Source: Nitrospirota bacterium
GTDB taxonomy: Bacteria > Nitrospirota > UBA9217
Direction of reading: 5' to 3'
DNA length: 64,000 bases
Assembly: GCA_963818475.1 (NCBI GenBank)
Contig: CAWFSF010000006.1
Span: 416,001-480,000 of the forward strand
The first letter of the stretch is position 1. The number at the start of each line of letters is the position of its first letter. A program made the position numbers and the translations under genes. A model generated the notes under the pieces. It was not told the origin of the DNA, ran no database searches, and saw only the letters and a list, made by a program, of their open reading frames with translations. This document shows, piece by piece, positions 3 through 43,326 of this stretch.

Positions 3-3000
3 CCTGCGTGGGGCGCCGGCTATAAAAATTATGATAATTGCACGGTCTGCCACGGCGTTCCGACGACCGGCAACGACGGATCGGTAATTTCGGTCAACCC
101 TGAAAAAACAGCGCCCGGCGGAACGGGTACGGACACCAACGGCGACACGGCGTCAACAGACCCCCAGGTCGGCATGCACCAGGCCCATCTTACGGCGGCC
201 AGAAATTACAGCGATCCCATTGCCTGCGGCGAGTGTCATACCGTGCCAACGCCTGCAACGCTTACCACCCATATTAATGACCTGCTTCCCGCCGAAGTGC
301 CGCTGGCAGGAGGGCTCACGACCACAAATCCCCGCTCACTACCGCAAACGCCGGCGTATTCCGGAGGGCAATGCAACAATACCTATTGCCACGACTACAA
401 CAGGTTCAAAAACGGTTTTCCTGATGACGCAACCCCTCCGTTTGCAACAAACGCGCCGATATGGAACACGACGCTTCTGAACGGAACGAGCGCCGACTGC
501 CAGCAGTGCCATGGATATCCTCCGGGGGGCAGTCACCCGCAGCCCGCTACCGATTGCGCCGGTTGCCATCCTGATGTGGCTCCCAATAATATATCCTTCT
601 CGATCGTTTACCAGCATATAAACGGGTCAATTGAGGGCGGCGGATGCAACGGCTGTCACGGCCAGTCCAATTCGACCGGCGCACCGTACACCTATAACGA
701 TCGGGTAACCACTAATGGTGGGACGGGCCATATAACAGCTGGCGTTGTGGGAGCGCACCAGAAACACGTGGCAACGCTCTTGTACACAGACTGCAATCTC
801 TGCCATGCGGGCAACACCATGCCGACCGTCGATAGCAAGATGACCATGAGCTTCAGCGGCATAGCGAGATTCGGCGGAGCTCCCGGCTTGTACATGGGCA
901 AAACCTTAGCGGGCAGCCCGGCGTATGTCTATGACCCCGGCACGATCTCCACCGCCGGCCCTATGAGCTGTTCCAACATCTACTGCCACAGTGACGGCGG
1001 CAACTATGCGGGAACGAAAGTTTACAGCTCCGTAACCTGGACTGGCGCAGCTCTCACCTGCGATAAGTGCCATGGAAACGGTGCAGGCACGCTCGTGACC
1101 ACGAATGTCCACCCGAAACATGTCACGAGCTACTCCCTGGGCTGCCAGGAGTGCCATTACAACACGACGACGGACGGCGCCACGATCACGACCCCGGCAA
1201 ACCACGTCAATACCGTGAAAAACGTGGACTGGAAAGTTGGCGGACTTAATGCCGGCGGAAGCGCTTATGCGCGGCCGAACTGTTCCACCATATACTGCCA
1301 CAGCCAGGGTATCAGCACCACGGCTCCTTACGGAGGTGCGGCGAACACGACAGCGGCCTGGAATGGAACAGCGTTGACCTGCGAAGGCTGCCACAGCTAC
1401 GATGCAGCGGCAACGAACAAGATGGCCACGGGCAAGCACACCCAGCACATCAACCAGAGCGCCGTGCTCGGTACCAACTACGGCTGTCAGGAATGCCATA
1501 ACACCACCACGACGAACGGCACGACGATCACGACGATAGCTAACCATGTCAACGGGACGCGGAACGTTTCGATGGTCAGAGGCGGCACCTGGACGTCGCC
1601 GAACTGCACGGCCACCTATTGCCACAGCACGGGCCAGGCCACACCGACTTCGGTGAATCCCGGTACCTGGACTGCAGGCGCAGCGCTGACCTGCGATAGC
1701 TGCCACGGCACGGAAGGCGGAACGGCCTTTGGCGAGCCTGCTTATACCAACGGAGTTCAGCCGGCCGTGGCCGAGAACAATGACAACAGCCATGCCGCGC
1801 ACGTGACTGCGGCAGCGGACTGCGTGAATTGCCATACGGACACGGTAAGCGCGACCGGCACGGCGATCAAGGCCGCATCGATACTGCATACGAACCAGGC
1901 GCGGAACGTAAACTTCGCCGCATCCCTGGACACCAACGGCGGAACGAACTCGGACAACTACAATGCCGGTGCCAAGACCTGCTCGTCAATTGTCTGTCAT
2001 GGAGCAGGAACCCCGATGTGGGGCGGCGCGACCCTTGCCTGCGATCAGTGCCATCTGGCGAACAACACCCTGGCCGGCAAGCACGCCAGGCATTACGGCG
2101 TGGCAACAGTAGCCGTGACCGCGGACAAGACACCGTCAAACACCTCGTCCGCAACGGTCTATGAATACAGCTGCGGCGTCTGCCACAACGCGACGCCCCA
2201 TGCCACCGGCAACGCAAGTGCGAACCAGGCGGCCAATGTGGTGTTTGACTCAACCATAGCAGGAGGAGGCACCTATACCGCCGGCGGCGCTCTTGCGGGC
2301 ACTGATACGGGCGGCATGGAGTGGACGAACGGCACCTGCGGGACCACGTACTGCCACAGCCAGGGTGCAAGCACCACGTCTCCGTTCGGCGGAGCGCCGA
2401 ACAGCACGGCCACCTGGAATGGTGGGGCCATGAACTGCGAAAGCTGCCACAACTTCAATGCGGCGGCAACGAACAAGATGGCCACGGGCAAGCACACCGC
2501 GCATATCAACGACGGAACAATCATGCCGAATGTGGCCTGCAGCGCCTGCCACACGTCGACGACGAGCGACAGCACCACGATCACTACTGAATCGAACCAT
2601 GTGAACAAGCTGAGGGATGTAACCATAGCAGCCACCTACGACAGCGACGCGACGCCGGGGAACAACTGGGCGACCAGCACCTGCTCCAATGTCTACTGCC
2701 ACAGCACGGGCGAAGCAACGCCGACGTATAAGCCGGTTCTCTGGACGGCCACGATAACGAACTGCGAAGCCTGCCACAACTACGATGCGGCCGCAACGAA
2801 CAAGATGGCCACGGGCAAACACTCCCAGCACATCAACCAGAGCGCCGTGCTCGGTACCAACTACGGCTGCCAGGAATGCCATAACACCACCACGACGAAC
2901 GGCACGACGATCACGACCCCGGCAAGCCACGTTGATAAAGTACGTGACGTGTCCATGCTCAGGGGCGGCACCTGGACGTCGCCGAACTGCACGGCCACCT

Positions 3001-6000
3001 ATTGCCACAGCACGGGCCAGGCCACACCGACTTCGGTGAATCCCGGTACCTGGACTGCAGGCGCAGCGCTGACCTGCGATAGCTGCCACGGCACGGAAGG
3101 CGGAACGGCCTTTGGCGAGCCTGCTTATACCAACGGAGTTCAGCCGGCCGTGGCCGAGAACAATGACAACAGCCATGCCGCGCACGTGACTGCGGCAGCG
3201 GACTGCGTGAATTGCCATACGGACACGGTAAGCGCGACCGGCACGGCGATCAAGGCCGCATCGATACTGCATACGAACCAGGCGCGGAACGTAAACTTCG
3301 CCGCATCCCTGGACACCAACGGCGGAACGAACTCGGACAACTACAATGCCGGTGCCAAGACCTGCTCGTCAATTGTCTGTCATGGAGCAGGAACCCCGAT
3401 GTGGGGCGGCGCGACCCTTGCCTGCGATCAGTGCCATCTGGCGAACAACACCCTGGCCGGCAAGCACGCCAGGCATTACGGCGTGGCAACAGTAGCCGTG
3501 ACCGCGGACAAGACACCGTCAAACACCTCGTCCGCAACGGTCTATGAATACAGCTGCGGCGTCTGCCACAACGCGACGCCCCATGCCACCGGCAACGCAA
3601 GTGCGAACCAGGCGGCCAATGTGGTGTTTGACTCAACCATAGCAGGAGGAGGCACCTATACCGCCGGCGGCGCTCTTGCGGGCACTGATACGGGCGGCAT
3701 GGAGTGGACGAACGGCACCTGCGGGACCACGTACTGCCACAGCCAGGGTGCAAGCACCACGTCTCCGTTCGGCGGAGCGCCGAACAGCACGGCCACCTGG
3801 AACGGTGGGGCCATGAACTGCGAAAGCTGCCACAACTTCAATGCGGCGGCAACGAACAAGATGGCCACGGGCAAGCACACCCAGCACATCAACCAGAGCG
3901 CCGTACTCGGTACGAACTACGGCTGCCAGGAATGTCATAACACGACCACGACCGACGGCACGACTATCACGAATGAGGCAAATCACGTCAACAAGACGCG
4001 TGACGTATCAATGCTCAGGGGCGGCACCTGGACTTCGCCGAACTGCACGGCCACCTATTGCCACAGCACGGGCCAGGCCACACCGACCTCTGTGAACCCG
4101 GGCACCTGGACTGCCGGCGCGGCAATGACCTGCGACAGCTGCCACGGAACGGAAGGCGGAACGGCCTTTGGCGAGCCCGCGTACACCAACGGAGTTCAGC
4201 CGGCCGTGGCCGAGAACAATGACAACAGCCATGCCGCGCACGTGACCGCGGCAATAGATTGCGTGAACTGTCATACGGACACGGTAAGCGCGACCGGTAC
4301 GGCGATAAAGGCCGCATCGATACTGCATACGAACCAGGCGCGGAACGTAAACTTCGCCGCGACCTTGGACAATAACGGCGGCACAAACTCCGACAACTAC
4401 AATGCTGGTGCCAAGACCTGCTCGTCAATTGTCTGCCATGGAGCGGGAACACCCATGTGGGGAGGTGCCTCTCTCAAATGTTCGGATTGCCACAGCGGAG
4501 CGTCCGATGTGGTTGATTACACAAGCAATGGTACCATCGCAACGATCAACAACACGCAGTGGGGCTACTCCGGCCACGGCAAGCCATCGTCAACCTATGA
4601 TATAACGGGCAATACGGCGGCCAACTTCCCTGGCGCGGTCACCACGGGAGATCCTTGCCAGTATTGCCATGACAGCACTGTTGCGCACAATGACGCGAAC
4701 AACCCGCTCAGACTGCGGAACTTCGCCGACGGGACATACGGCAAAAACGGCGTGTGCATGAAGTGTCACGGAACGGGCCAGACGGGCGTGAACCCGGGCA
4801 CGGGCTACTCACTTAAGACCGCCACCAAGAAGGTCGACAAGTACCACTATGCCGCCAAACACGGCGGGAGCTACACAGGCGGTCAGTACTGCTGGGATTG
4901 CCACGACGGCCACGGCGATTCGACCACCACTGCCGGACCCATCGCCATGATCCAGTTGAACCCGGCCAGCGCGTCCAACAGCACGACGGCGATACCCACG
5001 ACCATCGTGTCGACAGCGGTCACGATGACCGGCCGTACTCTTCCATCGAACTACGGCAAGACCGTTACTCCCTTTAACGGCATATGCAACGTCTGCCATA
5101 CCGCGGGGGCGAACGGTCTCAGCAGCCATTACACGTCAACGACGTCGGACGGACACAACTCGACCACGCTCTGCACCGATTGCCATAAGCACAGTGTAAA
5201 TACGACCTATGAAAACAAGGCATGGGAAGGCGCGGGCGGCGATTGTCTCGGGTGCCACAACTCGGCGCAGAGCGATGGCGCCAACACGGACATCGACAAC
5301 AACGGCGTGCGGGTGGTGGCGTCGGAGTTCACCAAACAGTCGCACCATGTAACCGGCAAGACCTTGTCCAAATTCGACTGCGCGGTCTGCCACGGAGAGG
5401 GCGATTATCTGACCGGCAGCACCACGGCGCTGCATAAGAACGGCCAGATCGATCTGCGAAACGCGGACAACGCGAGCGCCTACTATACCTGGACCGGGTC
5501 CGAGCATACGAACATGGATAACTTCTGCATGAGTTGCCATGATGCGAACGGAGCTTCGGTAACCTATTCACGTGATCCGCTGGCGACAAGTCCGAGCAGG
5601 ACGAACCCTTTCGGTGACACGCGTCAGAACTCCTATGACCAGGTTGTGCGCACGGTCGTGGTCGACGTTTTCACGGCATTCAACCCCGGCACAGGCGGCT
5701 CGGGCACCGGCTACAACGGGAATTACTCGCAGCATGCGGTCCGCGGGGCCCGGTATTCCAATGATGCCGATGCCGGCAGCATGTATACGAACGGCCGGTT
5801 TGATGCCGCCTATACGCCGCTCGGTGGAAGTGTGTCCGTACGTGATTCCTCGACGCTCCACTGCGGCGATTGCCATACGAACGGCCAGTATAGTACGGCA
5901 ACCGCGCCGGTGATCGGCGCTCATGGATCGAACAACGAGTACCTGCTCAGGACAATCAACAGCAGTGACGCGGAGCATACCAAGACGACCTACGGCTGCT

Positions 6001-6422
6001 TCAAGTGCCACCTCCTGGCCAGATATAGCGCCACGCACTCTAATGGAAACGCATCTGACTTCGTCGATTCGTCTACGTTGACCGGCATTGCCGGCCGCGC
6101 CGCGAGCAACGCGAACATTACCGGCATTTCCTGCACGAACTGTCATAACTCCGGAGATGCGAAGTTTGGCGGGGTGCACGGTGGCAACGCCACGTACACG
6201 GACAATCAAGGCTATACGGCGAAGACCTACCGGTTCATGCCGGGTTTGGGCAACAACAAGTACTCACCGACGCAGAGCGGGTCAAGCGCGGAAGCAGACT
6301 GGGAACAGCCCACTGCTTACGGATGCTACACTACGCCGACCGCAAATTGGGGAAGCTGCACCAAGCATAGCGGCGGAGCCAAGACGGTGACAAGAGGCCA
6401 ATCACGGAAACTCAGGTACTAA
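3..6422 (+). CDS. Giant multiheme c-type cytochrome, CxxxxCH/CxxCH-repeat (Geobacter-type) family; 5'-truncated by the window edge
   Basis: The frame is open from position 3 (PAWGAGYKNYDNCTVCHG...) into the 174..6422 ORF. By manual count there are about 38 CXXCH and 12 CX4CH motifs, with recurring CX4CH...W...CXXCH...H..H units. The protein is very rich in Thr/Ser/Gly/Ala/Asn. Confidence 0.95.
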   Translation, partial: PAWGAGYKNYDNCTVCHGVPTTGNDGSVISVNPEKTAPGGTGTDTNGDTASTDPQVGMHQAHLTAARNYSDPIACGECHTVPTPATLTTHINDLLPAEVPLAGGLTTTNPRSLPQTPAYSGGQCNNTYCHDYNRFKNGFPDDATPPFATNAPIWNTTLLNGTSADCQQCHGYPPGGSHPQPATDCAGCHPDVAPNNISFSIVYQHINGSIEGGGCNGCHGQSNSTGAPYTYNDRVTTNGGTGHITAGVVGAHQKHVATLLYTDCNLCHAGNTMPTVDSKMTMSFSGIARFGGAPGLYMGKTLAGSPAYVYDPGTISTAGPMSCSNIYCHSDGGNYAGTKVYSSVTWTGAALTCDKCHGNGAGTLVTTNVHPKHVTSYSLGCQECHYNTTTDGATITTPANHVNTVKNVDWKVGGLNAGGSAYARPNCSTIYCHSQGISTTAPYGGAANTTAAWNGTALTCEGCHSYDAAATNKMATGKHTQHINQSAVLGTNYGCQECHNTTTTNGTTITTIANHVNGTRNVSMVRGGTWTSPNCTATYCHSTGQATPTSVNPGTWTAGAALTCDSCHGTEGGTAFGEPAYTNGVQPAVAENNDNSHAAHVTAAADCVNCHTDTVSATGTAIKAASILHTNQARNVNFAASLDTNGGTNSDNYNAGAKTCSSIVCHGAGTPMWGGATLACDQCHLANNTLAGKHARHYGVATVAVTADKTPSNTSSATVYEYSCGVCHNATPHATGNASANQAANVVFDSTIAGGGTYTAGGALAGTDTGGMEWTNGTCGTTYCHSQGASTTSPFGGAPNSTATWNGGAMNCESCHNFNAAATNKMATGKHTAHINDGTIMPNVACSACHTSTTSDSTTITTESNHVNKLRDVTIAATYDSDATPGNNWATSTCSNVYCHSTGEATPTYKPVLWTATITNCEACHNYDAAATNKMATGKHSQHINQSAVLGTNYGCQECHNTTTTNGTTITTPASHVDKVRDVSMLRGGTWTSPNCTATYCHSTGQATPTSVNPGTWTAGAALTCDSCHGTEGGTAFGEPAYTNGVQPAVAENNDNSHAAHVTAAADCVNCHTDTVSATGTAIKAASILHTNQARNVNFAASLDTNGGTNSDNYNAGAKTCSSIVCHGAGTPMWGGATLACDQCHLANNTLAGKHARHYGVATVAVTADKTPSNTSSATVYEYSCGVCHNATPHATGNASANQAANVVFDSTIAGGGTYTAGGALAGTDTGGMEWTNGTCGTTYCHSQGASTTSPFGGAPNSTATWNGGAMNCESCHNFNAAATNKMATGKHTQHINQSAVLGTNYGCQECHNTTTTDGTTITNEANHVNKTRDVSMLRGGTWTSPNCTATYCHSTGQATPTSVNPGTWTAGAAMTCDSCHGTEGGTAFGEPAYTNGVQPAVAENNDNSHAAHVTAAIDCVNCHTDTVSATGTAIKAASILHTNQARNVNFAATLDNNGGTNSDNYNAGAKTCSSIVCHGAGTPMWGGASLKCSDCHSGASDVVDYTSNGTIATINNTQWGYSGHGKPSSTYDITGNTAANFPGAVTTGDPCQYCHDSTVAHNDANNPLRLRNFADGTYGKNGVCMKCHGTGQTGVNPGTGYSLKTATKKVDKYHYAAKHGGSYTGGQYCWDCHDGHGDSTTTAGPIAMIQLNPASASNSTTAIPTTIVSTAVTMTGRTLPSNYGKTVTPFNGICNVCHTAGANGLSSHYTSTTSDGHNSTTLCTDCHKHSVNTTYENKAWEGAGGDCLGCHNSAQSDGANTDIDNNGVRVVASEFTKQSHHVTGKTLSKFDCAVCHGEGDYLTGSTTALHKNGQIDLRNADNASAYYTWTGSEHTNMDNFCMSCHDANGASVTYSRDPLATSPSRTNPFGDTRQNSYDQVVRTVVVDVFTAFNPGTGGSGTGYNGNYSQHAVRGARYSNDADAGSMYTNGRFDAAYTPLGGSVSVRDSSTLHCGDCHTNGQYSTATAPVIGAHGSNNEYLLRTINSSDAEHTKTTYGCFKCHLLARYSATHSNGNASDFVDSSTLTGIAGRAASNANITGISCTNCHNSGDAKFGGVHGGNATYTDNQGYTAKTYRFMPGLGNNKYSPTQSGSSAEADWEQPTAYGCYTTPTANWGSCTKHSGGAKTVTRGQSRKLRY
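1581..2498 (+). repeat. Intragenic direct repeat, copy 1 (~918 bp)
   Basis: Near-identical to 2964..3881 at offset 1383; shadow ORFs such as 1757..1957 and 3140..3340 are identical. Weaker similarity extends back to ~1397 and ~2780. Confidence 0.92.
2964..3881 (+). repeat. Intragenic direct repeat, copy 2
   Basis: Matches 1581..2498; I spotted only one synonymous difference (2420 t vs 3803 c), without a formal alignment. Confidence 0.92.
4020..4462 (+). repeat. Intragenic repeat, partial diverged copy 3
   Basis: Encodes the same GGTWTSPNCTATYCH...CSSIVCHGAGTPMWGG segment at offset 1056 from copy 2, with many synonymous changes. Confidence 0.85.
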
Positions 6423-6439: not shown

Positions 6440-6473
6440 GGCGGGAAGTTCGAAAGAACTTCCCGCCTTTTTT
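6440..6473 (+). terminator. Rho-independent terminator of the giant cytochrome gene
   Basis: Perfect 12-bp stem GGCGGGAAGTTC-GAAA-GAACTTCCCGCC followed by TTTTTT, just downstream of the stop codon. Confidence 0.92.
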
Positions 6474-6851: not shown

Positions 6852-8450
6852 TTAGTCGTTGATTCCCCTGATGATATTATTGACGGTATTGAACTCCAGG
6901 AGGGGCAGATCATCGGTATTTATCGCGACATCGGACCTCTCCACGATTTCCCGCACCTGCTGGGGATCTCTTGAAAGGCTGATTTCGAGGGGGATCCCCG
7001 ACTTATTGAGCGCCGCCACCCGTTTTATGGTTTCATCCCGGGTGAACGGGAACGGCTCTACCGATGCGACCGCGATAAGGTCAAAGCTGTCCCCGACCTT
7101 CCAAAGGTATACATTCTTAAAAACCGAGCCGATCGTTTTGAGCATCATTGTAACGTCGTCGTTGGTGAGCGTGTAATAGGGAAGCCACTGGCAGTATATC
7201 CCTCCCGGCAGGAGCCTGTTTTTGGCCAATTCGTAGTACTCCCGGGTGAACAGATTTGCGACGGCGGACTCCGCAGGATAGGACGGTTCGGAGGAGATGA
7301 TGTCGTACCGTTTTTCCTCGTGGATAAAATGCCGCCTCGCGTCGTCGATATGGACATCTACCCCTTCGAAGATGCCTGGAGGGCCGTACCTGCCAATAGC
7401 CTCCGCCACGCCGGGGTTTATCTCAATGACACCGGTGTCTTTTATGTGCTCTTTCGCCGCCATGAGCGTTACGCCCGCTCCGAGCCCGATCGTCAGAAAA
7501 CTGCCGGGATTCCGGTGAGAGGCTATGGGCAGGTAGGCAAGGAGGAGCGTGTTGGGCATGTCTTCTTTCGTGGTCCCTTCCATTTTCCCGCCGGTCTGGA
7601 GGACAAGATAGCCGTCCCGTTCTCGATAGAGCCTGACGGCGCCCTCGGGAAACTCCTTGTAGTAGAGCAGCTCGTGGCCCATTTTGTTTTTCTGAAGCAG
7701 ATAGCGAGGGGGTATGTTCTGGAACCGACTGAGAGTATAAAAGGTTACGAAGGTTGTTTTTTCCTCTGACCAGGCTGATACGCTTCCCGCCATTAGAACG
7801 AACATCCCAAGTCCTGCGATGACTCTCCGGCTGCCGCCGAGGAGAAGCAGGACCAGCAGCGCAATGGCTAGGTTCATTCCGGCCGCAAAGAAGGTCGTTA
7901 TCTTCAGTCCGAGATGGGGGATGAGAATGAAACCGCCGGAGAGCGCCCCGGCTATGGCCCCCAGGGTATTTACAGCGTAGGCGTTCCCTACCGTTCTCCC
8001 TATTTCCCCCATTTCACCGGCTATCGCCCTCGATACGAGGGGGAATGACATTCCCATGAGGGTCGTGGGAACGATCATGACAGCGGCGGCGAGGAACAAT
8101 TGAACTTCCAGAAAAAGGGCGAGGTCCATATGAAAGAGCCGGTGAAGATGCAGGTAGGCGGTGGGGATAGCGTATATCATCGGAATGGTAAGGAGACCGA
8201 AGATGCCTATACCGGCTTCACAGAAAGCGAACAGCCTGACGGGATCCCTGTCCGTGTCCGCCAGCTTGCCTCCTATGTATCCCCCGAGGGCAAGCCCTGC
8301 CATAAATGTGGAAAGCATTGAAGAAAGGGCATAGGTGGTGGATCCGAAAACGAGTGACAGCGCACGTGTCCACGTAACTTCATAAATAAGCGCGGCGGTT
8401 CCCGATAACCCGAATGCAGCCAGTATCCATTTTTTTTTCATGGGATGCAT
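6852..8450 (-). CDS. Fused membrane (MFS-like) / spermidine synthase-like protein
   Basis: N-terminal TM domain with SGTAALIYEVTWTR...FGSTTY...FMAGLALG and YAVNTLGAIAG. C-terminal SAM/dcSAM fold with IGLGAGVT, IEINP, DDARR and YDIISSEP. Start is ATG 8450 or 8441. Confidence 0.85.
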   Translation of the reverse strand: MHPMKKKWILAAFGLSGTAALIYEVTWTRALSLVFGSTTYALSSMLSTFMAGLALGGYIGGKLADTDRDPVRLFAFCEAGIGIFGLLTIPMIYAIPTAYLHLHRLFHMDLALFLEVQLFLAAAVMIVPTTLMGMSFPLVSRAIAGEMGEIGRTVGNAYAVNTLGAIAGALSGGFILIPHLGLKITTFFAAGMNLAIALLVLLLLGGSRRVIAGLGMFVLMAGSVSAWSEEKTTFVTFYTLSRFQNIPPRYLLQKNKMGHELLYYKEFPEGAVRLYRERDGYLVLQTGGKMEGTTKEDMPNTLLLAYLPIASHRNPGSFLTIGLGAGVTLMAAKEHIKDTGVIEINPGVAEAIGRYGPPGIFEGVDVHIDDARRHFIHEEKRYDIISSEPSYPAESAVANLFTREYYELAKNRLLPGGIYCQWLPYYTLTNDDVTMMLKTIGSVFKNVYLWKVGDSFDLIAVASVEPFPFTRDETIKRVAALNKSGIPLEISLSRDPQQVREIVERSDVAINTDDLPLLEFNTVNNIIRGIND

Positions 8451-18227: not shown

Positions 18228-18245
18228 GTAGCATTGCTCTTCTCT

Positions 18246-32933: not shown

Positions 32934-33015
32934 AACGGCTCTGGTAATAGATCAATAGCAATCTTCGACTGAGCAGCACTGAGCAGCCTTGACTGTTCAC
33001 CGGGAATGGATTATC

Positions 33016-34826: not shown

Positions 34827-36278
34827 ATGAAAATTGGTCTTATCGTCCCCCCTGCAATTTCGCAGGACAGAATCCCTGAACGGGTTTACGGCTGCACGTT
34901 TACGTACTACAAACAGCCCCAGCTTCCGCTCCTGTATGTCGGAGCTGTTCTCGAGAGGGAAGGCCATCAGGTCGTGTTCAGGGACTTCACCGGCAGGAAT
35001 GCTTGGGATGCGTTTGTCAGCTTTGTCGATGCCGCACCCTGCGATCTCTATGTTTTCCATACCGTCCTGCTGGCGGAAAGCGTTGACCTCCGGGCGGCAC
35101 GGCATGTCCTGGAGCATACCGCAGCGAAAATCATTTTCTTCGGCCCCCAGCCGACGCTGAAGCCGCGGAACTTCCTGACGAGCGACCGGTGCTATGTGGC
35201 ACGTGGTGAGGCTGAATTCATAATCCGTGACCTGGCTCGGGCTTTGGAGCACGGTGGTCTTGAGACCGTAAAAGGCATATCCTATCTCAGAACAAGCCAG
35301 ATGGTCGAGGCCGAAAGCTATGGAGTCATCGAGGACCTGGACAGCCTTCCTTTCCCGGCTCGCCATCTGATCGAACGCGGGAAGGATGATTTTTTCAATC
35401 CAAAGCTGCCCTACCGGCCCGTGACGCTGGTCCTGACCTCGCGGGGCTGCAGGTTCCGCTGCTACTATTGCGTGCCCAATGCAATCAGCTGGGCACGCGA
35501 GCTGGAATGGAAGCGGTTTCATCCCGGCACCAAGCCGCCAGTGACGCTCCGGTCTCCCGGGAACATCGCCGCCGAGTTCACGGCCATAAAAGCCCAGGGA
35601 TATCAGGCCGTGTCCATCCTCGATGATATGTTTCTTTTTGGCGGCAAGGAAAGGATTCTGGAGATATGTCGTGGATTAGAACGAGTTCAGCTACCCTTCG
35701 GAGGACTTTCTCGCTGTGAATTTGTGCTCGATGATGAAGTGGGTCAGGCACTGGCACGGGCTGGCTGTAAGTATATCGATCTGGGGATCGAGTCGCTCAA
35801 TCAAAATGTGCTCAATGATATTAAAAAGGACCTGGATATTTCGAAGGTCCGGCAGGCCATCGACCTGCTGAACAAGTATGGGATCGAGCCAAAAGCCAAT
35901 ATCATGTTCGGAGCCTCGCCGCTGGAAACGAAAGACACAATCCGTTCCACGGTTGAGACGATCTCAGCATATCCACTCAATTACTGCATGTTCCTGATTG
36001 CAACCCCATTTCCCGGGACGGAGTTCGATAAGCAAGCAAGGCAGAACGGGTGGGCAATTGAACCAGACATAAATGATCTGGAGAACAATCTTTCGCCTAC
36101 GAACAAGTCACTCGTGGAATACCCACATCTGGGCAAAGGAGACCTGGAACATGCGGTAAAGAAAGCAAATCGGCGATTTTATCTCAGTCCCAGGAGGATT
36201 TGGTTCCAGCTGAGCAAGGTCAGTTCCTGGAAGGCGTTGAAGGATTTGATGGTGACCGGCTGGAAGATCATAAAGTAG
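34827..36278 (+). CDS. B12-binding radical SAM protein
   Basis: ARGEAE, TSRGCRFRCYYC, LGIES and TPFPGT. Confidence 0.9.
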   Translation: MKIGLIVPPAISQDRIPERVYGCTFTYYKQPQLPLLYVGAVLEREGHQVVFRDFTGRNAWDAFVSFVDAAPCDLYVFHTVLLAESVDLRAARHVLEHTAAKIIFFGPQPTLKPRNFLTSDRCYVARGEAEFIIRDLARALEHGGLETVKGISYLRTSQMVEAESYGVIEDLDSLPFPARHLIERGKDDFFNPKLPYRPVTLVLTSRGCRFRCYYCVPNAISWARELEWKRFHPGTKPPVTLRSPGNIAAEFTAIKAQGYQAVSILDDMFLFGGKERILEICRGLERVQLPFGGLSRCEFVLDDEVGQALARAGCKYIDLGIESLNQNVLNDIKKDLDISKVRQAIDLLNKYGIEPKANIMFGASPLETKDTIRSTVETISAYPLNYCMFLIATPFPGTEFDKQARQNGWAIEPDINDLENNLSPTNKSLVEYPHLGKGDLEHAVKKANRRFYLSPRRIWFQLSKVSSWKALKDLMVTGWKIIK

Positions 36279-36319: not shown

Positions 36320-37015
36320 ATGAAGATCCTGATTATCATACCGGCATACAATGAAGAAAAGAGCCTTCCCGGAGTTATCTCTGAACTGAGGAAAGAGGCT
36401 CCGGAGGCGGACGTGCTTGTCGTGAACGATGGGTCCCACGATAAGACGGTGCATATTGCGCGAGAAATGAGTGCTCAGGTTCTAGACCTGCCGTTCAACC
36501 TCGGGATCGGTGGAGCGATGCAGGCCGGGTACCTCTATGCACAGCGTCGGGGCTACGACATCGCAGTTCAGTTTGATGGCGATGGCCAGCATCTTGCCCA
36601 TGAGATAAAAAAATTGCTGCAGCCCGTGCTGGACGGGAAGGCTGATATTCTTATCGGTTCCCGGTTTCTGGGGCAGGGAGATTACAAACCCTCGTTCTCC
36701 AGAAAAATCGGAATCAAGGTCTTTTCCACTGTGTTATCATGCATCCTCGGAACGCGATTAACGGATACGACATCAGGTTTTCGCGCCGCCAACCGGCGGG
36801 TGATCGAGTTCTATGCCCGCACCTATCCCGACGATTATCCAGAAGTGGAGGCGCTGGTGCTTCTGCACAAGGCCGGGATGCGGATCGCGGAGGTTCCGGT
36901 CCACATGCGTGAGCGCACCAGCGGTCAGTCCTCCATAACAGCGGTGCGTTCGGTGTATTACATGGTAAAAGTGCTCCTGGCGGTCTTGATCGACCTGCTT
37001 AAAAAAACGAGGTGA
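36320..37015 (+). CDS. DPM1-like polyprenol-phosphate glycosyltransferase (GT2)
   Basis: IIIPAYNEE, NDGSHD, NLGIGGA, FDGDGQH, GSRF and DTTSGFR. Confidence 0.9.
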   Translation: MKILIIIPAYNEEKSLPGVISELRKEAPEADVLVVNDGSHDKTVHIAREMSAQVLDLPFNLGIGGAMQAGYLYAQRRGYDIAVQFDGDGQHLAHEIKKLLQPVLDGKADILIGSRFLGQGDYKPSFSRKIGIKVFSTVLSCILGTRLTDTTSGFRAANRRVIEFYARTYPDDYPEVEALVLLHKAGMRIAEVPVHMRERTSGQSSITAVRSVYYMVKVLLAVLIDLLKKTR

Positions 37016-37019: not shown

Positions 37020-37376
37020 ATGGATATCTTGGGCATATTGGCGATAGTCGGAAACGGGACGATCCTGCTGCTGGTCATAGAACTGATCCGCAGAGGACGA
37101 TTAAAAGAACGGTATTCTCTTGTCTGGCTCTTTGCCTGCGTTTCTCTGCTGATCCTCTCTCTGTCCAGGGAAACGCTTGAGTTCTTTTCGCATCTCGTCG
37201 GGATTTATTATGCCCCGTCCTTCCTGTTTCTTGTTGCCTTCCTGTTTCTGCTGATGATCACCCTTCACTTTTCCGTGGTCATATCGGGTCTGTCTGAAAA
37301 AAACAAAAAGCTTGCTCAGGAACTTTCATTGCTGAGGAACGAGATGGAGGGACGGGCAGCCCGGAAATCAGAGTAG
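37020..37376 (+). CDS. DUF2304-family membrane protein (GacJ-like partner of a polyprenol-P sugar synthase)
   Basis: IRRGRLKERYSLVW...VGIYYAPS...SEKNKKLAQELS, immediately after a DPM1-like GT2. Confidence 0.85.
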   Translation: MDILGILAIVGNGTILLLVIELIRRGRLKERYSLVWLFACVSLLILSLSRETLEFFSHLVGIYYAPSFLFLVAFLFLLMITLHFSVVISGLSEKNKKLAQELSLLRNEMEGRAARKSE

Positions 37377-37515: not shown

Positions 37516-38715
37516 ATGGGCTTCGTACAGACGATGAAGGATAAAATGGAAAGGTTCTATAGCAGCCCGCGGTTCAATGGCGCGGCGTTCATTCTCATTG
37601 CTGCGATGGTGCTTATTGCCTATTCCAATACGTTCACCGCCGCGTTTCATTTTGATGACAACCCGTCCATTGCTGAAAACCCAGTGATCAAGCACGTGAC
37701 CATGGAAAATATCACTCAGATCATTATGGGAATTCGGCCGGTCGTTTACCTGAGTCTGATGCTCAACTATCAGCTCGGCGCTCTGAATGTCGTGGGTTAC
37801 CACATATTCAATATTGCCGTTCATGTCATAAACAGCATGTTCGTCTATACGCTCATGCTCTGGACCTTTGGGATGCCCCTCCTCAGCGCCGCGTATCAGG
37901 CAAAGGCAAAAAGAATGGCATTATTCGGCGCGCTCCTGTTTGCCGTGCATCCGATCCAGACAGAGTCGGTAACGTATATTATAACCCGGACGGAGCTGCT
38001 TGCGACGTGCTTCTATCTTGCCACCTTCCTTCTATTCATCAAAGGGGTAAAAACCAAGAAGTTCGGTTACACTATCGGTGCCTTTTTTACCGCCCTCCTT
38101 GCCATGGGGTCCAAGGAATGGGCGGTAACGCTGCCGGCACTGCTCTTTGTCTATGATTTTCTGTTCCTGTCGGAAGGGAAGTTGAAGCCGATAGTGTCCC
38201 GCTGGCTAACGTATGTGATGGTAACGATTCCGTGCGCCACTGTTTTCCGCAACCTGAATCTGTTTTCGAGCAGCTCTGCCTCAGGCATCGGATTTAATTT
38301 GTCCACCACGAGTGGCATCAATGCACAGACGTACCTGCTCACCTCTTTTAATGTAATCTGGACGTATATCCGGTTGATGTTCCTGCCGATCAACCAGAAC
38401 CTCGACTACGACTATCCTATTGCAAAGACTTTGTTTGAATTCCCGACGATCATTTCTTTCATCGGACATCTGATCGTGGTGGGCGGCGCATTCTGGCTTT
38501 ATGTGAAAAAGAGATGGCTGTTGATTCCCTTTGGTGTGGCCTGGTTCTACATCGGCATCTCCCCGGTCCAGAGCGTCGTGCCGATCGTCGATGTTATTTT
38601 CGAGCACCGCATGTATATGCCGTCAATCGGCGTTTTCATCGTATTTGTTACAGCGTATGAGGGCTTGTTTGACCTCTGGACGGAAAAGAAAAGCGGTGCA
38701 GCGAAGATGCGTTAA
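37516..38715 (+). CDS. TMTC-like GT-C glycosyltransferase lacking the last TM and the TPR domain
   Basis: FHFDD, RP, YHIFNIAVH, HPIQTESVTYIITRTELL, SKE, NLDYDY and EHRMYMPS; the ORF stops shortly after that TM. Confidence 0.82.
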   Translation: MGFVQTMKDKMERFYSSPRFNGAAFILIAAMVLIAYSNTFTAAFHFDDNPSIAENPVIKHVTMENITQIIMGIRPVVYLSLMLNYQLGALNVVGYHIFNIAVHVINSMFVYTLMLWTFGMPLLSAAYQAKAKRMALFGALLFAVHPIQTESVTYIITRTELLATCFYLATFLLFIKGVKTKKFGYTIGAFFTALLAMGSKEWAVTLPALLFVYDFLFLSEGKLKPIVSRWLTYVMVTIPCATVFRNLNLFSSSSASGIGFNLSTTSGINAQTYLLTSFNVIWTYIRLMFLPINQNLDYDYPIAKTLFEFPTIISFIGHLIVVGGAFWLYVKKRWLLIPFGVAWFYIGISPVQSVVPIVDVIFEHRMYMPSIGVFIVFVTAYEGLFDLWTEKKSGAAKMR

Positions 38716-38739: not shown

Positions 38740-40173
38740 TCATTTATGCGTTTTATCAAAGATCCGGGCAATAATTCTTTTAGAGTGTTTTATGCTCCAG
38801 AACAGGTGCTCAAACACGTTAAGCGCATCGTACTTGAAAATATTTTTTACCACGTTCACAATATTCGACGTTACTGATTCATGTTCATCCATGAATGCAA
38901 AATAATTTTTGCATTTGATGTTTGCCTCGTAATACGCCTGTAATCGTTCCTCCCTGGTGAAATTATCAGTTTCAAATACCACCTTGGGATTTTTCCCCTG
39001 AGTAAAACCGTCTTTCCAATCCATCAGCATGCGCCCGTTGTTTTTTACCCAGTCCCATACCTCGGTTCCCGGGAAGGGAACAAATAAATTGAAGATACAC
39101 GACTCCAATCTCAGTTTTTTTGCAAATGTAACGGACTCGCGAATAGAATTGAGGTGAGAGCCTGGCAGGCCGATAATAAAATTCCCCATAACCGAGATCT
39201 TATGCCTTCTTGCCATCGCGGCCGCACGCACGATGTCAGATAGCTCTTCTCCTTTTTTGATGGTTTTAAATTCCTCTTCTACGCCGCTCTCGATGCCGAG
39301 AGCAACGGCAAAACATCCAGCGCTCTGCATTTTCCCCATCAGTTCGTCATCGACCTTGTCCGCCCTGATCCCGTTCGGACAGGACCATTTGAGTTCCAGG
39401 TTGTCATGGGTGAGGGAATCGCAGAATGTTTTTGCCCTTTTCATGTCCAGCGAAAAATTGTCATCCTGAATATTGAAGTTGCTTATCCGGTATTGTGCTT
39501 TGGCTTTTTTAAGCTCATCGATAACCGTTTCCACGGTTCGTGGAACCCATGTCCTCCCCATGACCACTTTTACACAGCAGTAGGTGCACAGATAGGGACA
39601 GCCCCGGCTCGTAACGAGCGGGTAATTGTTAATGACGCCGTCCGTAACGCTGTCGAAAATGCCGAATTCAGGGTAGGGGATCGAATCGAGATCGGATATC
39701 CTTCCGGCATTTCCGGTAAAAATGATTTCTGAATTCTTTCTGAAGATAATTCCTTTTATTGACTCGAGGCTCCTGTTCGAAGCAAGTGCGTCGAGCAGCT
39801 GTGAGGTGACGATCTCACCTTCACCTACAACGCCGAAATCAAATAAATCGTGCTCTCTCATAAAATTGACGCCGTCGAGCGTGATGTGGGGGCCTCCGGC
39901 GATCAGGATATTGTTCTTATTTTTGACCTTTCGGGCGATCTCCAATGCATAATCCTTTGTGAAGGATTTCATGGAAAATCCGATGATGTCATAGCCCGCT
40001 ATTTCCCTGATCCTGGAGTCCTTATTCTCTCCATTATTGTTGAAATCAAAGACCTTGATATTTTTCGCCTTATTAACTTTCATTAAATAGGAGGCGACGT
40101 ATCCGATCCCGGTATTCAGTCCGAAATGAACGCCCTTGGGGTCGACAAAACAGATTTTATCATTCTTTGCCAT
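38740..40173 (-). CDS. B12-binding radical SAM protein
   Basis: GGPH, GEGE, TSRGCPYLCTYC, DDNF and GIESG. Confidence 0.9.
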   Translation of the reverse strand: MAKNDKICFVDPKGVHFGLNTGIGYVASYLMKVNKAKNIKVFDFNNNGENKDSRIREIAGYDIIGFSMKSFTKDYALEIARKVKNKNNILIAGGPHITLDGVNFMREHDLFDFGVVGEGEIVTSQLLDALASNRSLESIKGIIFRKNSEIIFTGNAGRISDLDSIPYPEFGIFDSVTDGVINNYPLVTSRGCPYLCTYCCVKVVMGRTWVPRTVETVIDELKKAKAQYRISNFNIQDDNFSLDMKRAKTFCDSLTHDNLELKWSCPNGIRADKVDDELMGKMQSAGCFAVALGIESGVEEEFKTIKKGEELSDIVRAAAMARRHKISVMGNFIIGLPGSHLNSIRESVTFAKKLRLESCIFNLFVPFPGTEVWDWVKNNGRMLMDWKDGFTQGKNPKVVFETDNFTREERLQAYYEANIKCKNYFAFMDEHESVTSNIVNVVKNIFKYDALNVFEHLFWSIKHSKRIIARIFDKTHK

Positions 40174-40195: not shown

Positions 40196-40876
40196 TCAGT
40201 TTGAGAACCGGTATCTCAGCAGCGCCCAGAGGGCGGAGAAGCCGTCGGTCCAGCGTATTTTTTTTCCTTCACGGTAGGTTCTGCCGTAATAGGATATCGG
40301 CATCTCGTAAATTCGGTATTTGTTTTTGCAGAATTTCGCCGTCAGTTCCACTTCGATCTCGAATCGTTTCGAGCGTAAGGTCATGTCCTTCAAGACACTG
40401 CTTCTGAATACCTTATAGCAGCTTTCCATATCTGACAGCGTCGAGTTGTAAAGAATGTTCGCAAAGAGCGTGAGCATCTTATTGCCGACCAGATGCCAGA
40501 ACATATACACCCGCTGCGGTTTTCCCCCGGAAAGCCGCGATCCGTATACCACATCGGCCATACCCCTGAGGATCGGTTCGGCCAGGGCTTGTATCTCCTG
40601 AGGGTCGTATTCCGTATCAGCGTCCTGGACTGCCACGATGTCACCGGTTACGAGTTCGAACCCCTTTCGCAGGGCAGTTCCTTTTCCGCCGTTTTTGGTA
40701 AGGAACGCCTTTTTGAGGCCGACGATATCCAAACGCTCAAGGACATCTTTTGTCCCGTCGGTGGAGCCATCGTCCACTACGATGATCTCTTTGTCGAACC
40801 CAAGCGAGTGGACCTTTCGTATGATCGTTTCGATCGTATTCTTTTCGTTATAAACGGGAATAACAATTGAAATCAT
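40196..40876 (-). CDS. DPM1-like polyprenol-phosphate glycosyltransferase (GT2)
   Basis: VIPVYNE, DDGSTDGT, GKGTA, QDADTEYDP, GSR and EGKKI. Confidence 0.9.
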   Translation of the reverse strand: MISIVIPVYNEKNTIETIIRKVHSLGFDKEIIVVDDGSTDGTKDVLERLDIVGLKKAFLTKNGGKGTALRKGFELVTGDIVAVQDADTEYDPQEIQALAEPILRGMADVVYGSRLSGGKPQRVYMFWHLVGNKMLTLFANILYNSTLSDMESCYKVFRSSVLKDMTLRSKRFEIEVELTAKFCKNKYRIYEMPISYYGRTYREGKKIRWTDGFSALWALLRYRFSN

Positions 40877-43326
40877 GTATGCATTCCTCTCTTTGTGACT
40901 AATTGTTTTCGATTAGCTCCAACGAGATAGGCGAGAGCCAAAACAATGATCGCGCATCCGCTTATCGCGGCGCCGATCGTGAAACTGAGTGGCGTATAGA
41001 TAAATCTGACCCGGGATTTTCCTTTTTCCAGGAACACGGCTCTGAAATTATAGTCCGCCCGGTAGATATCTCGTTTTTTCCCATCCACGAGAGCAGTCCA
41101 TCCCGGGTAGTAAGTGTCGCTCAGTATCAGCAGGCCCCTCTCGGCCATATCAGCATCTATGACGACCTCGCGCGACCCATAGGAGAAGACCGAGGCTAAC
41201 GAACGGCCGGATGCCTGCGACCCCTTCAGCTCCGGCACTGGTGACGGAAGATCGGGGCCCAGAACAGCTTCAGATGCCGGCTTAAAATCAGGCCGATACA
41301 GGATGGCGAGCGCGTCCTCCTTACTGGTTGCCACTTGGGCTTTATGAACAATAAATGCACGCGGAAGCGCATTGAGGTTCTGATAAACATTGATTTCGTC
41401 CGAGTACACTTTTTCCAGAAAGGGAACCTTCAATTCCTGATCTTTCGGTACGAGAAGATATTTGACATTCATGAGGTTGGCAAGAGTGGTGTTCATGGAA
41501 TTGCCGAACATGAAAAAGGTGCCCACGCCTGTTTTCCGGGTCATCAGTTCTTCGTAGCTTTTTAGTGAGATGCCATCGTATCCGCGTACATCCTGAAGAC
41601 CGTAGGGTACCCAGGTATTCATGGCCATGACCTTGCCGATCCCATAGATGCGGTGCAGGCTTTGGTCTTTGCGTAAAAAATCAATGGCCGGCGTTGAAGG
41701 GTATACCTGATCCGGTTTGATGCCCGCCCAGAAGCCGGAAGCAAAAACAAGGAGGTCCGCTATGGTTATCAGGACGAGAAGTGTCTGGAATACCGTCTTT
41801 GTCAGATATTCTTTAGCATAGAGAAATACGGAAAGCGCTGACAGAAGTGCCCAGAGAAGAAAATGCAGCAGTTTGTTGGTAACATATACCGAGAGACCGC
41901 GGCCTGCAACAATCTCCGCAAACGCGCCATACGATATGAGAACCCACAGCAGGAGGGCGATGCCCAGGGAAACAGCGAATAACCGGCTGAACGTTCTGGT
42001 CATGCGTCGTAGATCCGCTTTGTCCGCCATAAGAAGGGAATGCGCGCCAAAGCCGGCGAGCACGGAGACCGAGAAACTGTAAATAAGGACCAGCCGATTG
42101 TTGTTCAGCTTGGCAAAGAGAGGAAGGCTCCAGATCGCATCGCCGATAAGGGGCATACGGTATACCACGGCGAGGGCGAGAATGCCGAGAAACGTAAAGA
42201 AGGCGACCCGTGCCTTACCCGCCGTGTTTCCGGTTATTGCTACGAAAGCCAGAAAAAGCGGCAAGATGCCCGCGTAACCGCTCTGCTCAAGGTAGGTCCA
42301 CATGCCCGCTGCATTACCCCAATAAGTATGCTCAGCGGGATTTCCAAAATAATCGGGGACCACATAGAGCACCAGGCCCTTGAGCGAAGTAACGAATCTG
42401 AAGAACGAATCCGGCGTGACTGAAAAGCCAGCGCCTCCTCTTGCGGCCATCAGTGAACTGAGGTTGATATATTCCCATGCGGGCAACAGCTGGATTGCGG
42501 CAACTGCGACTCCCAGGCAGACCGCTGCGCCATACAGCATTGATGCGTGAAGCGATATGCGTATATCGCGGTTTTCCCGATAGAGCATGAGAATGCGGAA
42601 GAGTGCATACAATCCCGCTGCAGCCAGGACGTGAAAGGTCGTCTCGTAATGGCCGGCCAGAAAGGAACATCCCACCGCAGCGGCCAGGGGCGCAACCGAG
42701 CGAATCGTTTGTGTTGTGAAAACCCGTTCGGAACAAAGAAGAAGGAGGGGGAGGCACAGCGCGGCAAGCACGTGGTTGTGGCCGAGCCAGCCGACCATGA
42801 ATCCGCTGAACATGAAGCTGGCCGCAGCCACAAGTGCGGCGGTGGTAGCGAGCCGTAATTCCTTCAGAAAGAGGTAGGTGAACAGGCCGGCAAAAAATAA
42901 TTTGAGATAAGCAGCCAGCCCGAATGCATACCAGACAGGCAGCATATAAAAGACCGCGTTCAGGGGGAACAAAAACCCCGTGGAATTCGCGAAAAACGGC
43001 CAGCCGCACGAAACCAGAGGATTCCACAAAGGGAATTCACCATGCCGGACCATGTCCGCGGCCTGGTGAAACCAGGGATAGAAGACGAAGGTATTGTCAA
43101 AGAGATTTTCATTGGAAGGTCCGCTGTAGCCGGCTGGAGCGATTGAGCTCCAGGGAGGCACGGTATATAGAAAATCGGCGGGCCACAGTGAATAGCCGAA
43201 AAAAAGCGCCTGACAGAGCAGAAGTGCGGGCAGAACAGCCAGGAGGGCAACAGGCCATCTGTGGTTCCCCGGTATTTCGTGCGTGATAACGCGGCCGTTG
43301 GTTTTGCTGCCGGAACCCTTGCTCAT
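40873..43326 (-). CDS. YfhO-family GT-C membrane glycosyltransferase
   Basis: GEFPLWNP...GWPFFAN, QLLP, GYDG, NVKY, LPRAF and YYPGWTALVDG. Start at MSKGS, overlapping the upstream stop. Confidence 0.88.
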   Translation of the reverse strand: MSKGSGSKTNGRVITHEIPGNHRWPVALLAVLPALLLCQALFFGYSLWPADFLYTVPPWSSIAPAGYSGPSNENLFDNTFVFYPWFHQAADMVRHGEFPLWNPLVSCGWPFFANSTGFLFPLNAVFYMLPVWYAFGLAAYLKLFFAGLFTYLFLKELRLATTAALVAAASFMFSGFMVGWLGHNHVLAALCLPLLLLCSERVFTTQTIRSVAPLAAAVGCSFLAGHYETTFHVLAAAGLYALFRILMLYRENRDIRISLHASMLYGAAVCLGVAVAAIQLLPAWEYINLSSLMAARGGAGFSVTPDSFFRFVTSLKGLVLYVVPDYFGNPAEHTYWGNAAGMWTYLEQSGYAGILPLFLAFVAITGNTAGKARVAFFTFLGILALAVVYRMPLIGDAIWSLPLFAKLNNNRLVLIYSFSVSVLAGFGAHSLLMADKADLRRMTRTFSRLFAVSLGIALLLWVLISYGAFAEIVAGRGLSVYVTNKLLHFLLWALLSALSVFLYAKEYLTKTVFQTLLVLITIADLLVFASGFWAGIKPDQVYPSTPAIDFLRKDQSLHRIYGIGKVMAMNTWVPYGLQDVRGYDGISLKSYEELMTRKTGVGTFFMFGNSMNTTLANLMNVKYLLVPKDQELKVPFLEKVYSDEINVYQNLNALPRAFIVHKAQVATSKEDALAILYRPDFKPASEAVLGPDLPSPVPELKGSQASGRSLASVFSYGSREVVIDADMAERGLLILSDTYYPGWTALVDGKKRDIYRADYNFRAVFLEKGKSRVRFIYTPLSFTIGAAISGCAIIVLALAYLVGANRKQLVTKRGMHT

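Follow-up and report, generated by a model that had tools for sequence, protein, structure and literature searches.

The 64,000-nucleotide stretch of Nitrospirota DNA analysed here (the window; contig CAWFSF010000006.1, positions 416,001 to 480,000, forward strand) is best explained as an envelope island of composite make-up, from a relative of Geobacter, in which the gene of a secreted 63-haem cytochrome stands together with System II genes for haem attachment (ResC, ResB and a ResB paralogue without the conserved histidine) and a glycosylation machinery of the kind that uses lipid-linked sugars. We tentatively propose, with a probability of roughly 0.4, that this machinery performs O-glycosylation in the periplasm and serves secreted cytochromes, above all the giant neighbour, alongside the haem-attachment set. 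The gene arrangement points to a sugar-coated cytochrome, short of proof.

The initial annotation had read this DNA as a candidate island for cytochrome maturation plus glycosylation. That reading gains from the recurring linkage of the same genes in other genomes and from the fusion of a TMTC-like transferase to a multihaem domain, both described below. The coupling of haem ligation to O-glycosylation of the giant cytochrome, which it also contained, is an argument of guilt by association.

A giant multihaem cytochrome

Gene identities are based on the listing of open reading frames (ORFs) and on Pfam and NCBIfam scans of 49 window ORFs. The window opens inside the giant cytochrome gene (3..6422, plus strand, 5′ end open at the window start), which here encodes the C-terminal 2139 residues. 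This part carries 38 CxxCH and 12 CxxxxCH motifs, or 50 haem motifs, and contains 14.8% threonine and 7.7% serine, in agreement with the initial call of a Thr/Ser-rich cytochrome with at least 50 haems. The full-length protein on the window's own 2.35-Mb contig (P0272) has 2778 residues, a signal-like segment at its N-terminus and 63 haem motifs (48 + 15), a count that is perhaps inexact because long and similar repeats such as those in this gene could collapse or expand in assembly. Three DNA repeat copies, 88-99% identical, lie within the gene (1287-4302) at spacings of 1383 and 1056 nucleotides, and about 350 residues of the protein are duplicated almost exactly. Tandem Repeats Finder, limited to periods up to 500, reports nothing in the cytochrome gene.

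The protein belongs to the CxxxxCH/CxxCH family TIGR01904 (295.4 bits against a cut-off of 27, in 12 stretches) and also matches PF09698 (104.8 bits, cut-off 21.7). It has 125 relatives of 1176-3744 residues, many of which are annotated by their source as CxxxxCH/CxxCH cytochromes. For example, a Geotalea daltonii protein of this giant family is already named for its 53 haem-binding sites. Many relatives of P0272 share its C-terminal motif (window 6380-6419), made of a basic residue, P or A, L or I, any residue and a final tyrosine, while other relatives end in YTPGGxY. This short motif might serve as a signal for sorting or assembly.

As a sign of glycosylation, the threonine-richness was rejected as non-specific, being a trait of the family (15 of 15 sampled members). 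Sequons of the N-x-S/T type were set aside as well: there are 49, compared to 40.3 +/- 5.5 in shuffled sequences, which is a weak excess, and no STT3/PglB gene is present.

Only three ORFs of the window have more than one haem motif (50, 9 and 9 motifs). CxxxxCH (CX4CH) is present in all three of these cytochrome genes.

Haem-attachment genes

The ResC/CcsA-type haem exporter-synthase (22978..23838, plus) scores 189.2 bits against TIGR03144 (cut-off 187.6) and matches PF01578 with an E value of 5e-41. Its WWD motif is intact and aligns, together with three histidine positions, with the solved CcsBA chain 25vk_A. Reading the adjoining ResB/CcsB gene (23835..25237, plus) takes three frames; the frame changes twice in about 100 bp, at a C/G run near 23985-23987 and at a T7 run at 24065-24071 (24060-24085). 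These changes may be an indel error in a long-read assembly or the mark of a true pseudogene. The histidine of the LFH membrane motif is present in this frame-broken resB.

The ResB-like paralogue (8653..9852, plus; 399 residues; PF05140 with 25.6 bits, cut-off 24.6) is colinear with ResB but very divergent (22% identity, E value 0.005). The LFH histidine, present in 10 of 10 canonical ResB rows, is absent from this protein and its orthologues (3 of 3: the window and the loci L008 and L022 of the genome survey below), so the gene does not qualify as a working ResB. The ResC and two ResB-like genes of the initial annotation are thus all found, one ResB being broken in frame and the other lacking the conserved histidine. 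Sequence searches of the PDB with ResB and the ResB-like protein gave no match.

The translational coupling of a TPR gene to resB, noted before, is real: the resB stop and the start of a membrane-anchored TPR protein (25234..26100, plus) overlap in a GTGA at 25234-25237, with GGGAG 5 nucleotides upstream.

TMTC-like and other GT-C transferases

Profile and Pfam scans confirm the six GT-C transferases listed earlier (three TMTC-like, two PMT-like and one YfhO). A purpose-built profile recognises as TMTC-like an 803-residue protein with TPR and a C-terminal nine-haem NapC/NirT-like domain (14504..16915, plus; E value 7e-153), its unfused 551-residue paralogue with TPR (19078..20733, plus; 3e-155) and a 399-residue copy (37516..38715, plus; 2e-34). 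Two of the three copies therefore have C-terminal TPR, and the 399-residue copy is without it. The two PMT/PMT_2-like proteins (21617..22843, 408 residues, and 28710..29993, 427 residues; both plus) match PF02366; on the NCBIfam Pmt model they fall well short of the cut-off (69.7 against 800 bits). The second of them is homologous to the TMTC-like profile (hhalign probability 97.7%). The YfhO-family protein (40873..43530, minus; 885 residues) reaches 91 bits against PF09586 (cut-off 28.5).

For the membrane domain of the 551-residue protein (residues 1-380) 176 relatives were found, and it matches the TMTC3 proteins of Drosophila and of a spider (E values 2.5e-16 and 7.3e-13). D36 and D37 are invariant both in 19 and in 28 aligned relatives; conservation in the same sets is complete or at least 90% for Y71, R72, P73, K181, E182, R328 and Y331. 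These residues correspond to the TMTC motifs DD, ..YRP, KE.. and [DE]RxxY, described as M1 DD, M2 ..SYRP, M4 KE.. and M7 ERxxY and linked to catalysis and to metal and donor binding (PMC7801869).

The structural comparison leads to the same fold. An AlphaFold model of the N-terminal membrane domain alone has a predicted local distance difference test score (pLDDT) of 87.8 and a predicted template modelling score (pTM) of 0.90. Its best Foldseek match is Pmt4 (9i5k_A; E value 4.3e-4, TM score 0.56), followed by ALG12, STT3, AglB, AftB, ArnT and PglB, and ranks 1-42 as listed are all GT-C enzymes or the GT-C-like PIG-U. The model of the whole protein (pLDDT 84.0) returned only TPR proteins from the PDB. 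Searches of PDB sequences with the TMTC-like domain or profile and with the PMT_2-like protein gave no match.

The two DPM1-like synthases of the initial annotation, one with DUF2304, are likewise present. A DPM1/PpgS-like GT2 (36320..37015, plus) is followed by a small DUF2304 membrane protein (37020..37376, plus), and a DPM1/AglJ-like GT2 (40196..40876, minus) adjoins the YfhO gene, overlapping its start by 4 nucleotides. The matches of these two proteins to the PpgS and AglJ equivalog models of NCBIfam are below the cut-offs, so these names hold at the family level only. The first GT2 is probably a polyprenyl-phosphate-sugar synthase.

Fusion of a transferase to a nine-haem domain

The initial annotation omitted two features of the island, the nine-haem domain fused to the 803-residue TMTC-like protein and a separate nine-haem gene. 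The latter (18234..19067, plus) encodes a membrane-anchored cytochrome of 277 residues with 8 CxxCH motifs and 1 CX4CH motif, and directly precedes the unfused 551-residue TMTC-like paralogue. Over 238 residues, the fused domain shares 66% identity with the separate cytochrome. By the Rosetta-stone argument, the fusion argues that the unfused neighbours, the 277-residue cytochrome and the 551-residue transferase, work together.

This fusion is rare. It was seen in 1 of the 120 TMTC-like matches listed and in 1 of the 22 relatives of the fusion C-terminus, and in both cases the protein is P0002, the cluster of the window's own fusion (802 of 803 residues identical), the only one of the 22 that combines TPR and cytochrome. 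The 277-residue cytochrome itself is part of a large family (749 matches with E values up to 1e-3), mostly found as the membrane-anchored N-terminal part of multihaem proteins of 650-690 residues. Among 16 relatives sampled from the 150 listed, fusions to response-regulator, cNMP or CBS domains occur in some, and TPR or GT-C domains in none (0 of 16). The single CX4CH of the family is invariant in 22 of 22 aligned rows.

Conservation of the linkage in other genomes

We made one scan of species-representative genomes with the TMTC-like alignment, which gave 75 loci with flanks of 10 kb (best identity 30-40%); the window's own genome is not among them. TMTC-like genes are arrayed, with 2-6 paralogues and a total of 148 in the 75 loci, and DPM1-like GT2 genes stand beside them in 23 loci. 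The gene-neighbourhood co-occurrence suggested with the initial annotation is found in part of the set: 13 of the 75 loci have a ResC homologue no more than 10 kb from a TMTC-like gene, three of these 13 also show a homologue of the giant cytochrome, and the other 62 loci have no ResC at this distance. With one to a few ccsA genes per genome, about one would be expected in the 1.2 Mb examined, compared to 15 found; this expectation is a rough figure and not a computed one. The recurrence in other genomes puts the linkage above chance.

The 13 loci comprise 4 from Geobacteraceae/Pelobacteraceae (ResC identity 62-68%), 5 from Nitrospirota and 3 from Desulfuromonadales (about 36%) and 1 weak case (26%, L017). 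Pfam confirms PF01578 in 11 of them, and the ResC of L022 is backed by 67% identity and the WWD motif. In 12 loci, the nearest gap between ResB or ResC and a TMTC-like gene is 28-59 bp on the same strand in 3 (L035, L043 and L053), 1.1-3.7 kb in 7 and 7.3-7.6 kb in 2.

The closest counterpart is L022, from a Geobacter metagenome-assembled genome (MAG). It opens with the last 135 residues of an orthologue of the cytochrome (48% identical, same C-terminus), followed by ResB-like, a WG-repeat protein, ResC, ResB, MFS/SpdSyn, three TMTC-like genes and SGNH, so that the genes of the window return here in a changed order. In the Nitrospirota loci L032 and L023, a Thr-rich cytochrome homologue (16.4-16.6% threonine) with two CX4CH motifs is the first gene of an operon-like, same-strand series that continues with PD40, ResB, ResC, radical SAM, LuxE-like and 2-3 TMTC-like genes; the intergenic gaps in L032 are at most 200 bp. 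For L020, L043 and L044, the sequence ends at or just before the gene preceding ResB, which is PD40 in L020 and L043 and has no family match in L044.

These Nitrospirota and Desulfuromonadales loci form a recurrent cluster (L020, L023, L032, L035, L043, L044, L047 and L053), composed of PD40 in some cases, ResB, ResC, a radical SAM protein, a LuxE-like acyl-protein synthetase or a methyltransferase, 2-5 TMTC-like genes and a B12 radical SAM protein. Some of the clusters add a carbamoyltransferase, a GT9, a beta-lactamase-fold protein or a SurA-like peptidyl-prolyl isomerase. To our knowledge, this cluster has no name. The Desulfuromonadales TMTC-like copies nest among the Nitrospirota copies in a FastTree of 141 TMTC-like domains, one clade of which draws 20 of its 27 rows from ResC-linked loci.

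Geobacteraceae loci show another arrangement. In L006 and L011 (1-10000 in both) and in L008 (15400-21568), ResC-ResB leads into genes for a WG-repeat protein, a MacB-like ABC transporter and an FtrD-like iron-sulfur membrane protein, after which come TMTC-like arrays, and there is no cytochrome within the flank of these three loci. L002 has in common with the window the TMTC-like genes, a pair of an unassigned gene and PMT_2, GT2 with DUF2304, and a GT2; it has no cytochrome or ResC within 10 kb.

Proposed mechanism and relation to known systems

In the mechanism that we envisage, the DPM1-like GT2 proteins would load sugars onto polyprenyl phosphate at the inner membrane face, and the six GT-C enzymes would pass these sugars on at the outer face. 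The TPR domains of the TMTC-like enzymes would hold secreted Ser/Thr-rich cytochrome chains for O-glycosylation in the place where ResBC attaches haem, the giant cytochrome being the foremost candidate substrate. The carbamoyl-, acyl- and methyltransferases, B12 radical SAM proteins and amino-sugar genes of the island would tailor the sugars, and the nine-haem membrane cytochrome probably ties a TMTC-like transferase to cytochrome traffic at the inner membrane. The acceptor, the sugar, the coupling to haem ligation and a special role of ResBC for CX4CH are parts of the scheme that we infer from gene content.

The nearest published parallel is the omcE locus of Desulfuromonadia. There, a common region that starts with purHDE and resB/ccsB is often followed by an omcE cluster and then by 15-70 genes for GT2, GT4, GT39, sugar modification, methyltransferases, exporters and TPR proteins (PMC13712944, mBio 2026). 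The link to glycosylation was inferred from gene presence compared to extra cryo-electron microscopy density, the glycosylation island being reportedly absent from a strain with no such density on its OmcE (PMC13712944). The window resembles this locus in its Geobacter-like lineage and in combining a multihaem cytochrome and System II genes with a run of GT2, GT4, GT39-type, sugar-modifying, methyltransferase and TPR genes, beside which resB/ccsB indeed stands.

The window is nonetheless not the published locus, an identification that we rejected: among the 49 ORFs scanned it has no OmcE, beta-propeller lipoprotein or beta-barrel gene, and no purHDE/ffh flanks are visible. Its CX4CH-type cytochrome with 63 haems is much larger, sugar genes flank resC/resB on either side within the island, and it has the extra ResB paralogue without the histidine. 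The TMTC-like enzymes and the cytochrome fusion have no mention for the omcE locus in the available part of that report (PMC13712944).

Among eukaryotic enzymes, the TMTC1-4 O-mannosyltransferases are similar in having GT-C followed by TPR, in the four motifs and in the TMTC3 sequence matches. The window proteins differ in being bacterial, so the donor would be a polyprenyl and not a dolichyl phosphate sugar, and in that one copy is without TPR and another carries a multihaem domain. The fungal and Actinobacterial PMT (GT39) enzymes, whose acceptors are Ser/Thr-rich secreted proteins, share the GT-C fold, with Pmt4 as the best structural match, and PF02366 in both PMT_2-like proteins; the latter are short (408-427 residues) and show no MIR-domain match in the Pfam scan. 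Our literature searches found no characterised bacterial TMTC-like enzyme or substrate and none tied to bacterial cytochromes.

A DPM1-like GT2 next to a GT-C protein, with a small DUF2304 membrane protein in one module, is also the composition of multi-component transmembrane glycosylation systems. ArnC/ArnT is such a system, and PpgS/Rv3632 acts with a GT-C on arabinogalactan. The targets of those systems are glycopolymers or lipid A, whereas the window modules sit with a cytochrome and ccs genes in a Gram-negative lineage. CsbB/YfhO, to which the second module is comparable, glycosylates lipoteichoic acid (PMC5836110, PMC8035078).

For the haem-attachment set, the closest precedents are NrfI and CcsA1 of Wolinella succinogenes, dedicated System II lyases for CXXCK and CX15CH (PMC12285233). 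As in these cases, CcsA/CcsB-type genes adjoin a cytochrome with a non-standard haem motif, here CX4CH. The presence of CX4CH in all three window cytochromes gives rise to the idea that the island's ResBC set might serve these sites; unlike for NrfI and CcsA1, this specificity is a candidate idea drawn from adjacency.

Glycosylation of cytochrome filaments as such is not new. OmcS and OmcE filaments of Geobacter are reported to be glycosylated and an insulating role of the glycans has been proposed (PMC9473688), and archaeal OmcZ-type wires carry putative N-glycans (PMC13748539). The filament glycans are thought to insulate OmcS and OmcE or to hold them apart. The insulation idea (PMC9473688) and the island of haem maturation, nanowire cytochrome and glycosylation (PMC13712944) are thus already in print. 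What the window adds is a giant cytochrome of the CX4CH type in the place of the presumptive partner, the TMTC-like enzymes, the recurrence together with ResBC across phyla and the transferase-cytochrome fusion. Our literature searches found no paper naming the enzymes that glycosylate OmcS/OmcE-type filaments.

If the TMTC-like and PMT_2-like enzymes of such islands act on cytochromes, the question becomes open to knock-outs in tractable Geobacter or Geotalea strains. A first substrate would then be known for bacterial relatives of the animal TMTC enzymes, and secreted chains that are very long and poorly folded may have their haem attachment coordinated with their glycosylation. Such a result would also be relevant to building conductive protein wires or expressing them in other hosts. 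If the enzymes instead target lipopolysaccharide (LPS) or exopolysaccharide (EPS), the window is an ordinary envelope locus, with the cytochrome-fused transferase as the sole curiosity left.

A bolder version of the proposal, which we offer as a long shot, makes the bacterial TMTC-like GT-C/TPR enzymes dedicated O-glycosyltransferases for giant CX4CH-type cytochromes. Together with a specialised ResBC lyase handling CX4CH, they would make up an assembly line on the outer side of the inner membrane, tethered by the nine-haem membrane subunit that is fused here. Such a module would be ancient or mobile enough to span Geobacterales and Nitrospirota, and would supply the enzymes that glycosylate extracellular cytochrome wires.

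Alternative explanations

Several observations weigh against a machinery that serves the cytochromes. A strong terminator-like hairpin (6440..6467, plus; 12-bp stem with 8 GC pairs and a T-run) closes the cytochrome gene 18 nucleotides past its stop codon, the next gene is on the opposite strand and resC has a promoter-like site of its own (22933-22961, 11 of 12), so that co-transcription of the cytochrome and resC is unlikely. In the present assembly resB is broken in frame, and the paralogue has no membrane histidine. Threonine contents of 9.6-15.1% occur in all 15 sampled members of the cytochrome family, from many lineages and in any gene context, and a literature search found no glycan data for members of this family.

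The survey of loci adds to these points. ORFs with at least three haem motifs occur in only 6 of the 75 loci and homologues of the giant cytochrome in only 3 (L022, L023 and L032), at the edge of the locus, a count to be read knowing that a 10-kb flank around the window's 551-residue gene would likewise miss the window's giant cytochrome. In the TMTC-like tree, the ResC-linked label is scattered (21 changes), and the Geobacteraceae clade that holds the window's two main TMTC-like enzymes has 23 other rows, only 4 of them from ResC-linked loci. The linked loci make up about two lineage groups and hence reflect few independent events.

The main competitor, which we regard as possible though doubtful, is that the acceptor of the GT-C enzymes is a glycopolymer or lipid (LPS core, O-antigen, EPS or peptidoglycan): the GT2 proteins would make a polyprenyl-phosphate sugar, which is flipped and transferred by GT-C, and the cytochrome and ccs genes would be neighbours only through the piling up of envelope genes at a variable locus. 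The modules GT2 (PpgS-like)-DUF2304-GT-C (36320-38715) and GT2-YfhO (40196-43530) mirror known systems of glycopolymer decoration, polysaccharide tailoring is the typical role of enzymes like the two AlgX-like SGNH proteins and the NodU-like carbamoyltransferase, and the island extends over another 20 kb with GT4, GT2, GT1, epimerase and amino-sugar genes. The GT9 heptosyltransferase genes in the clusters L020 and L047 keep an LPS-directed role alive, and the 62 loci without ResC fit it as well. Nonetheless, among the 49 ORFs scanned there is no match to the families of Wzx, Wzy, O-antigen ligase, ABC exporter or priming transferase, and both the nearest characterised relatives (animal TMTCs) and the best structural match (Pmt4) act on proteins. 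Decoration of a polymer would also leave unexplained the fusion of TMTC to a multihaem domain, the same-strand spacing of 28-59 bp between ResB/ResC and TMTC-like genes in L035, L043 and L053, and the giant-cytochrome family at the head of L022, L023 and L032.

The enzymes could also act on proteins in general, with OmcE/OmcS-type filaments, pilins or lipoproteins encoded elsewhere as main substrates and the giant cytochrome as one of many at most, its adjacency being incidental. This we consider unlikely. The published Desulfuromonadia islands are linked to omcE and not to giant cytochromes (PMC13712944), Geobacteraceae loci like L002 share the gene set in the absence of cytochrome and ResC, and arrays of 2-6 TMTC-like paralogues would suit several acceptor specificities; yet there is no OmcE-like gene in the window, where only three ORFs have more than one haem motif, the scans of the 49 ORFs give no match to beta-propeller or beta-barrel families, and the three loci whose flank reaches past ResB show the giant-cytochrome family and not OmcE. 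Very unlikely, in our view, is a reading in which the TMTC-like and TPR proteins chiefly hold or scaffold apocytochromes in the periplasm while haem is attached, as the TPR subunits of System I lyases do, with sugar transfer lost or secondary. It would suit the match of TPR domains of many TMTC-like family members to the CcmH/CycH TPR model PF23914, the TPR gene coupled to resB and the fusion to a cytochrome domain, but 19 and 28 aligned relatives keep the catalytic and donor-binding GT-C/TMTC motifs with little or no variation, and the DPM1-like GT2 genes beside TMTC-like genes in 23 of 75 loci argue for active transferases.

Other features of the window

A fused MFS/spermidine-synthase-like membrane protein (6852..8477, minus; NF037959 above cut-off) is 51% identical to its counterpart in L022. 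The tailoring enzymes, which the initial annotation mentioned as a group, comprise a membrane-anchored SGNH/AlgX-like esterase or acyltransferase (10712..11920, plus) and a carbamoyltransferase with NodU-like fold (12159..13847, plus), both by Pfam/NCBIfam, a second SGNH/AlgX-like protein by Pfam (16968..18137, minus), a S-adenosylmethionine (SAM) methyltransferase (33984..34739, plus) and B12-binding radical SAM genes. The three TPR proteins of that annotation are the one coupled to resB and two found by the Pfam scan, a small protein with a lipoprotein-like N-terminus (9981..10508, plus) and another at 26493..27332 (plus). Pfam also identifies a DUF2062 membrane protein (31944..32489, plus), and a GT2 glycosyltransferase with C-terminal membrane segments lies at 32989..34032 (plus).

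Three membrane-anchored proteins are unassigned. One of 246 residues (20890..21630, plus) lies just 5′ of the first PMT_2-like gene and another (28040..28723, plus) 5′ of the second, and both match the same region of L002. The third has 434 residues (30170..31474, minus) and a homologue in L014 (46%). A protein-atlas search gave no identity for the 434- and 246-residue proteins.

The 64 kb contain four B12-binding radical SAM genes (34827..36278, plus; 38740..40173, minus; 43323..44729, minus; and 49889-51313), a family seen again in 14-18 of the 75 TMTC-like loci. From 44726 to 63310 (minus), the island continues with GT4, GT2 and GT1 transferases, epimerases/dehydratases, methyltransferases and B12 radical SAM, an AsnB-type amidotransferase, an M28 peptidase, a HAD protein, an ATP-grasp-like protein, a UDP-GlcNAc 3-dehydrogenase-like protein and a DegT aminotransferase. 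The right border previously placed at 43326 is therefore arbitrary, the sugar genes reaching at least 63310. Amid them, the M28 peptidase (55728-57545) carries two F5/8 type C (carbohydrate-binding-like) domains.

Neither tRNA genes nor Rfam families were found in the window, hence they give no island boundary. The G+C content drops to 0.42-0.47 at 26001-28000, 30001-32000 and 50001-54000, compared to 0.50-0.62 in other parts, and by this measure the island looks mosaic.

Finally, a Nitrospirae MAG (L027, 18827-21400) has counterparts of the DUF2062 protein, the first DPM1-like GT2 and the DUF2304 protein, with identities of 72%, 65% and 56%. These values are far above the best identity of the TMTC-like proteins (30-40%), which hints at a recent transfer of the DUF2062-GT2-DUF2304 module between phyla.

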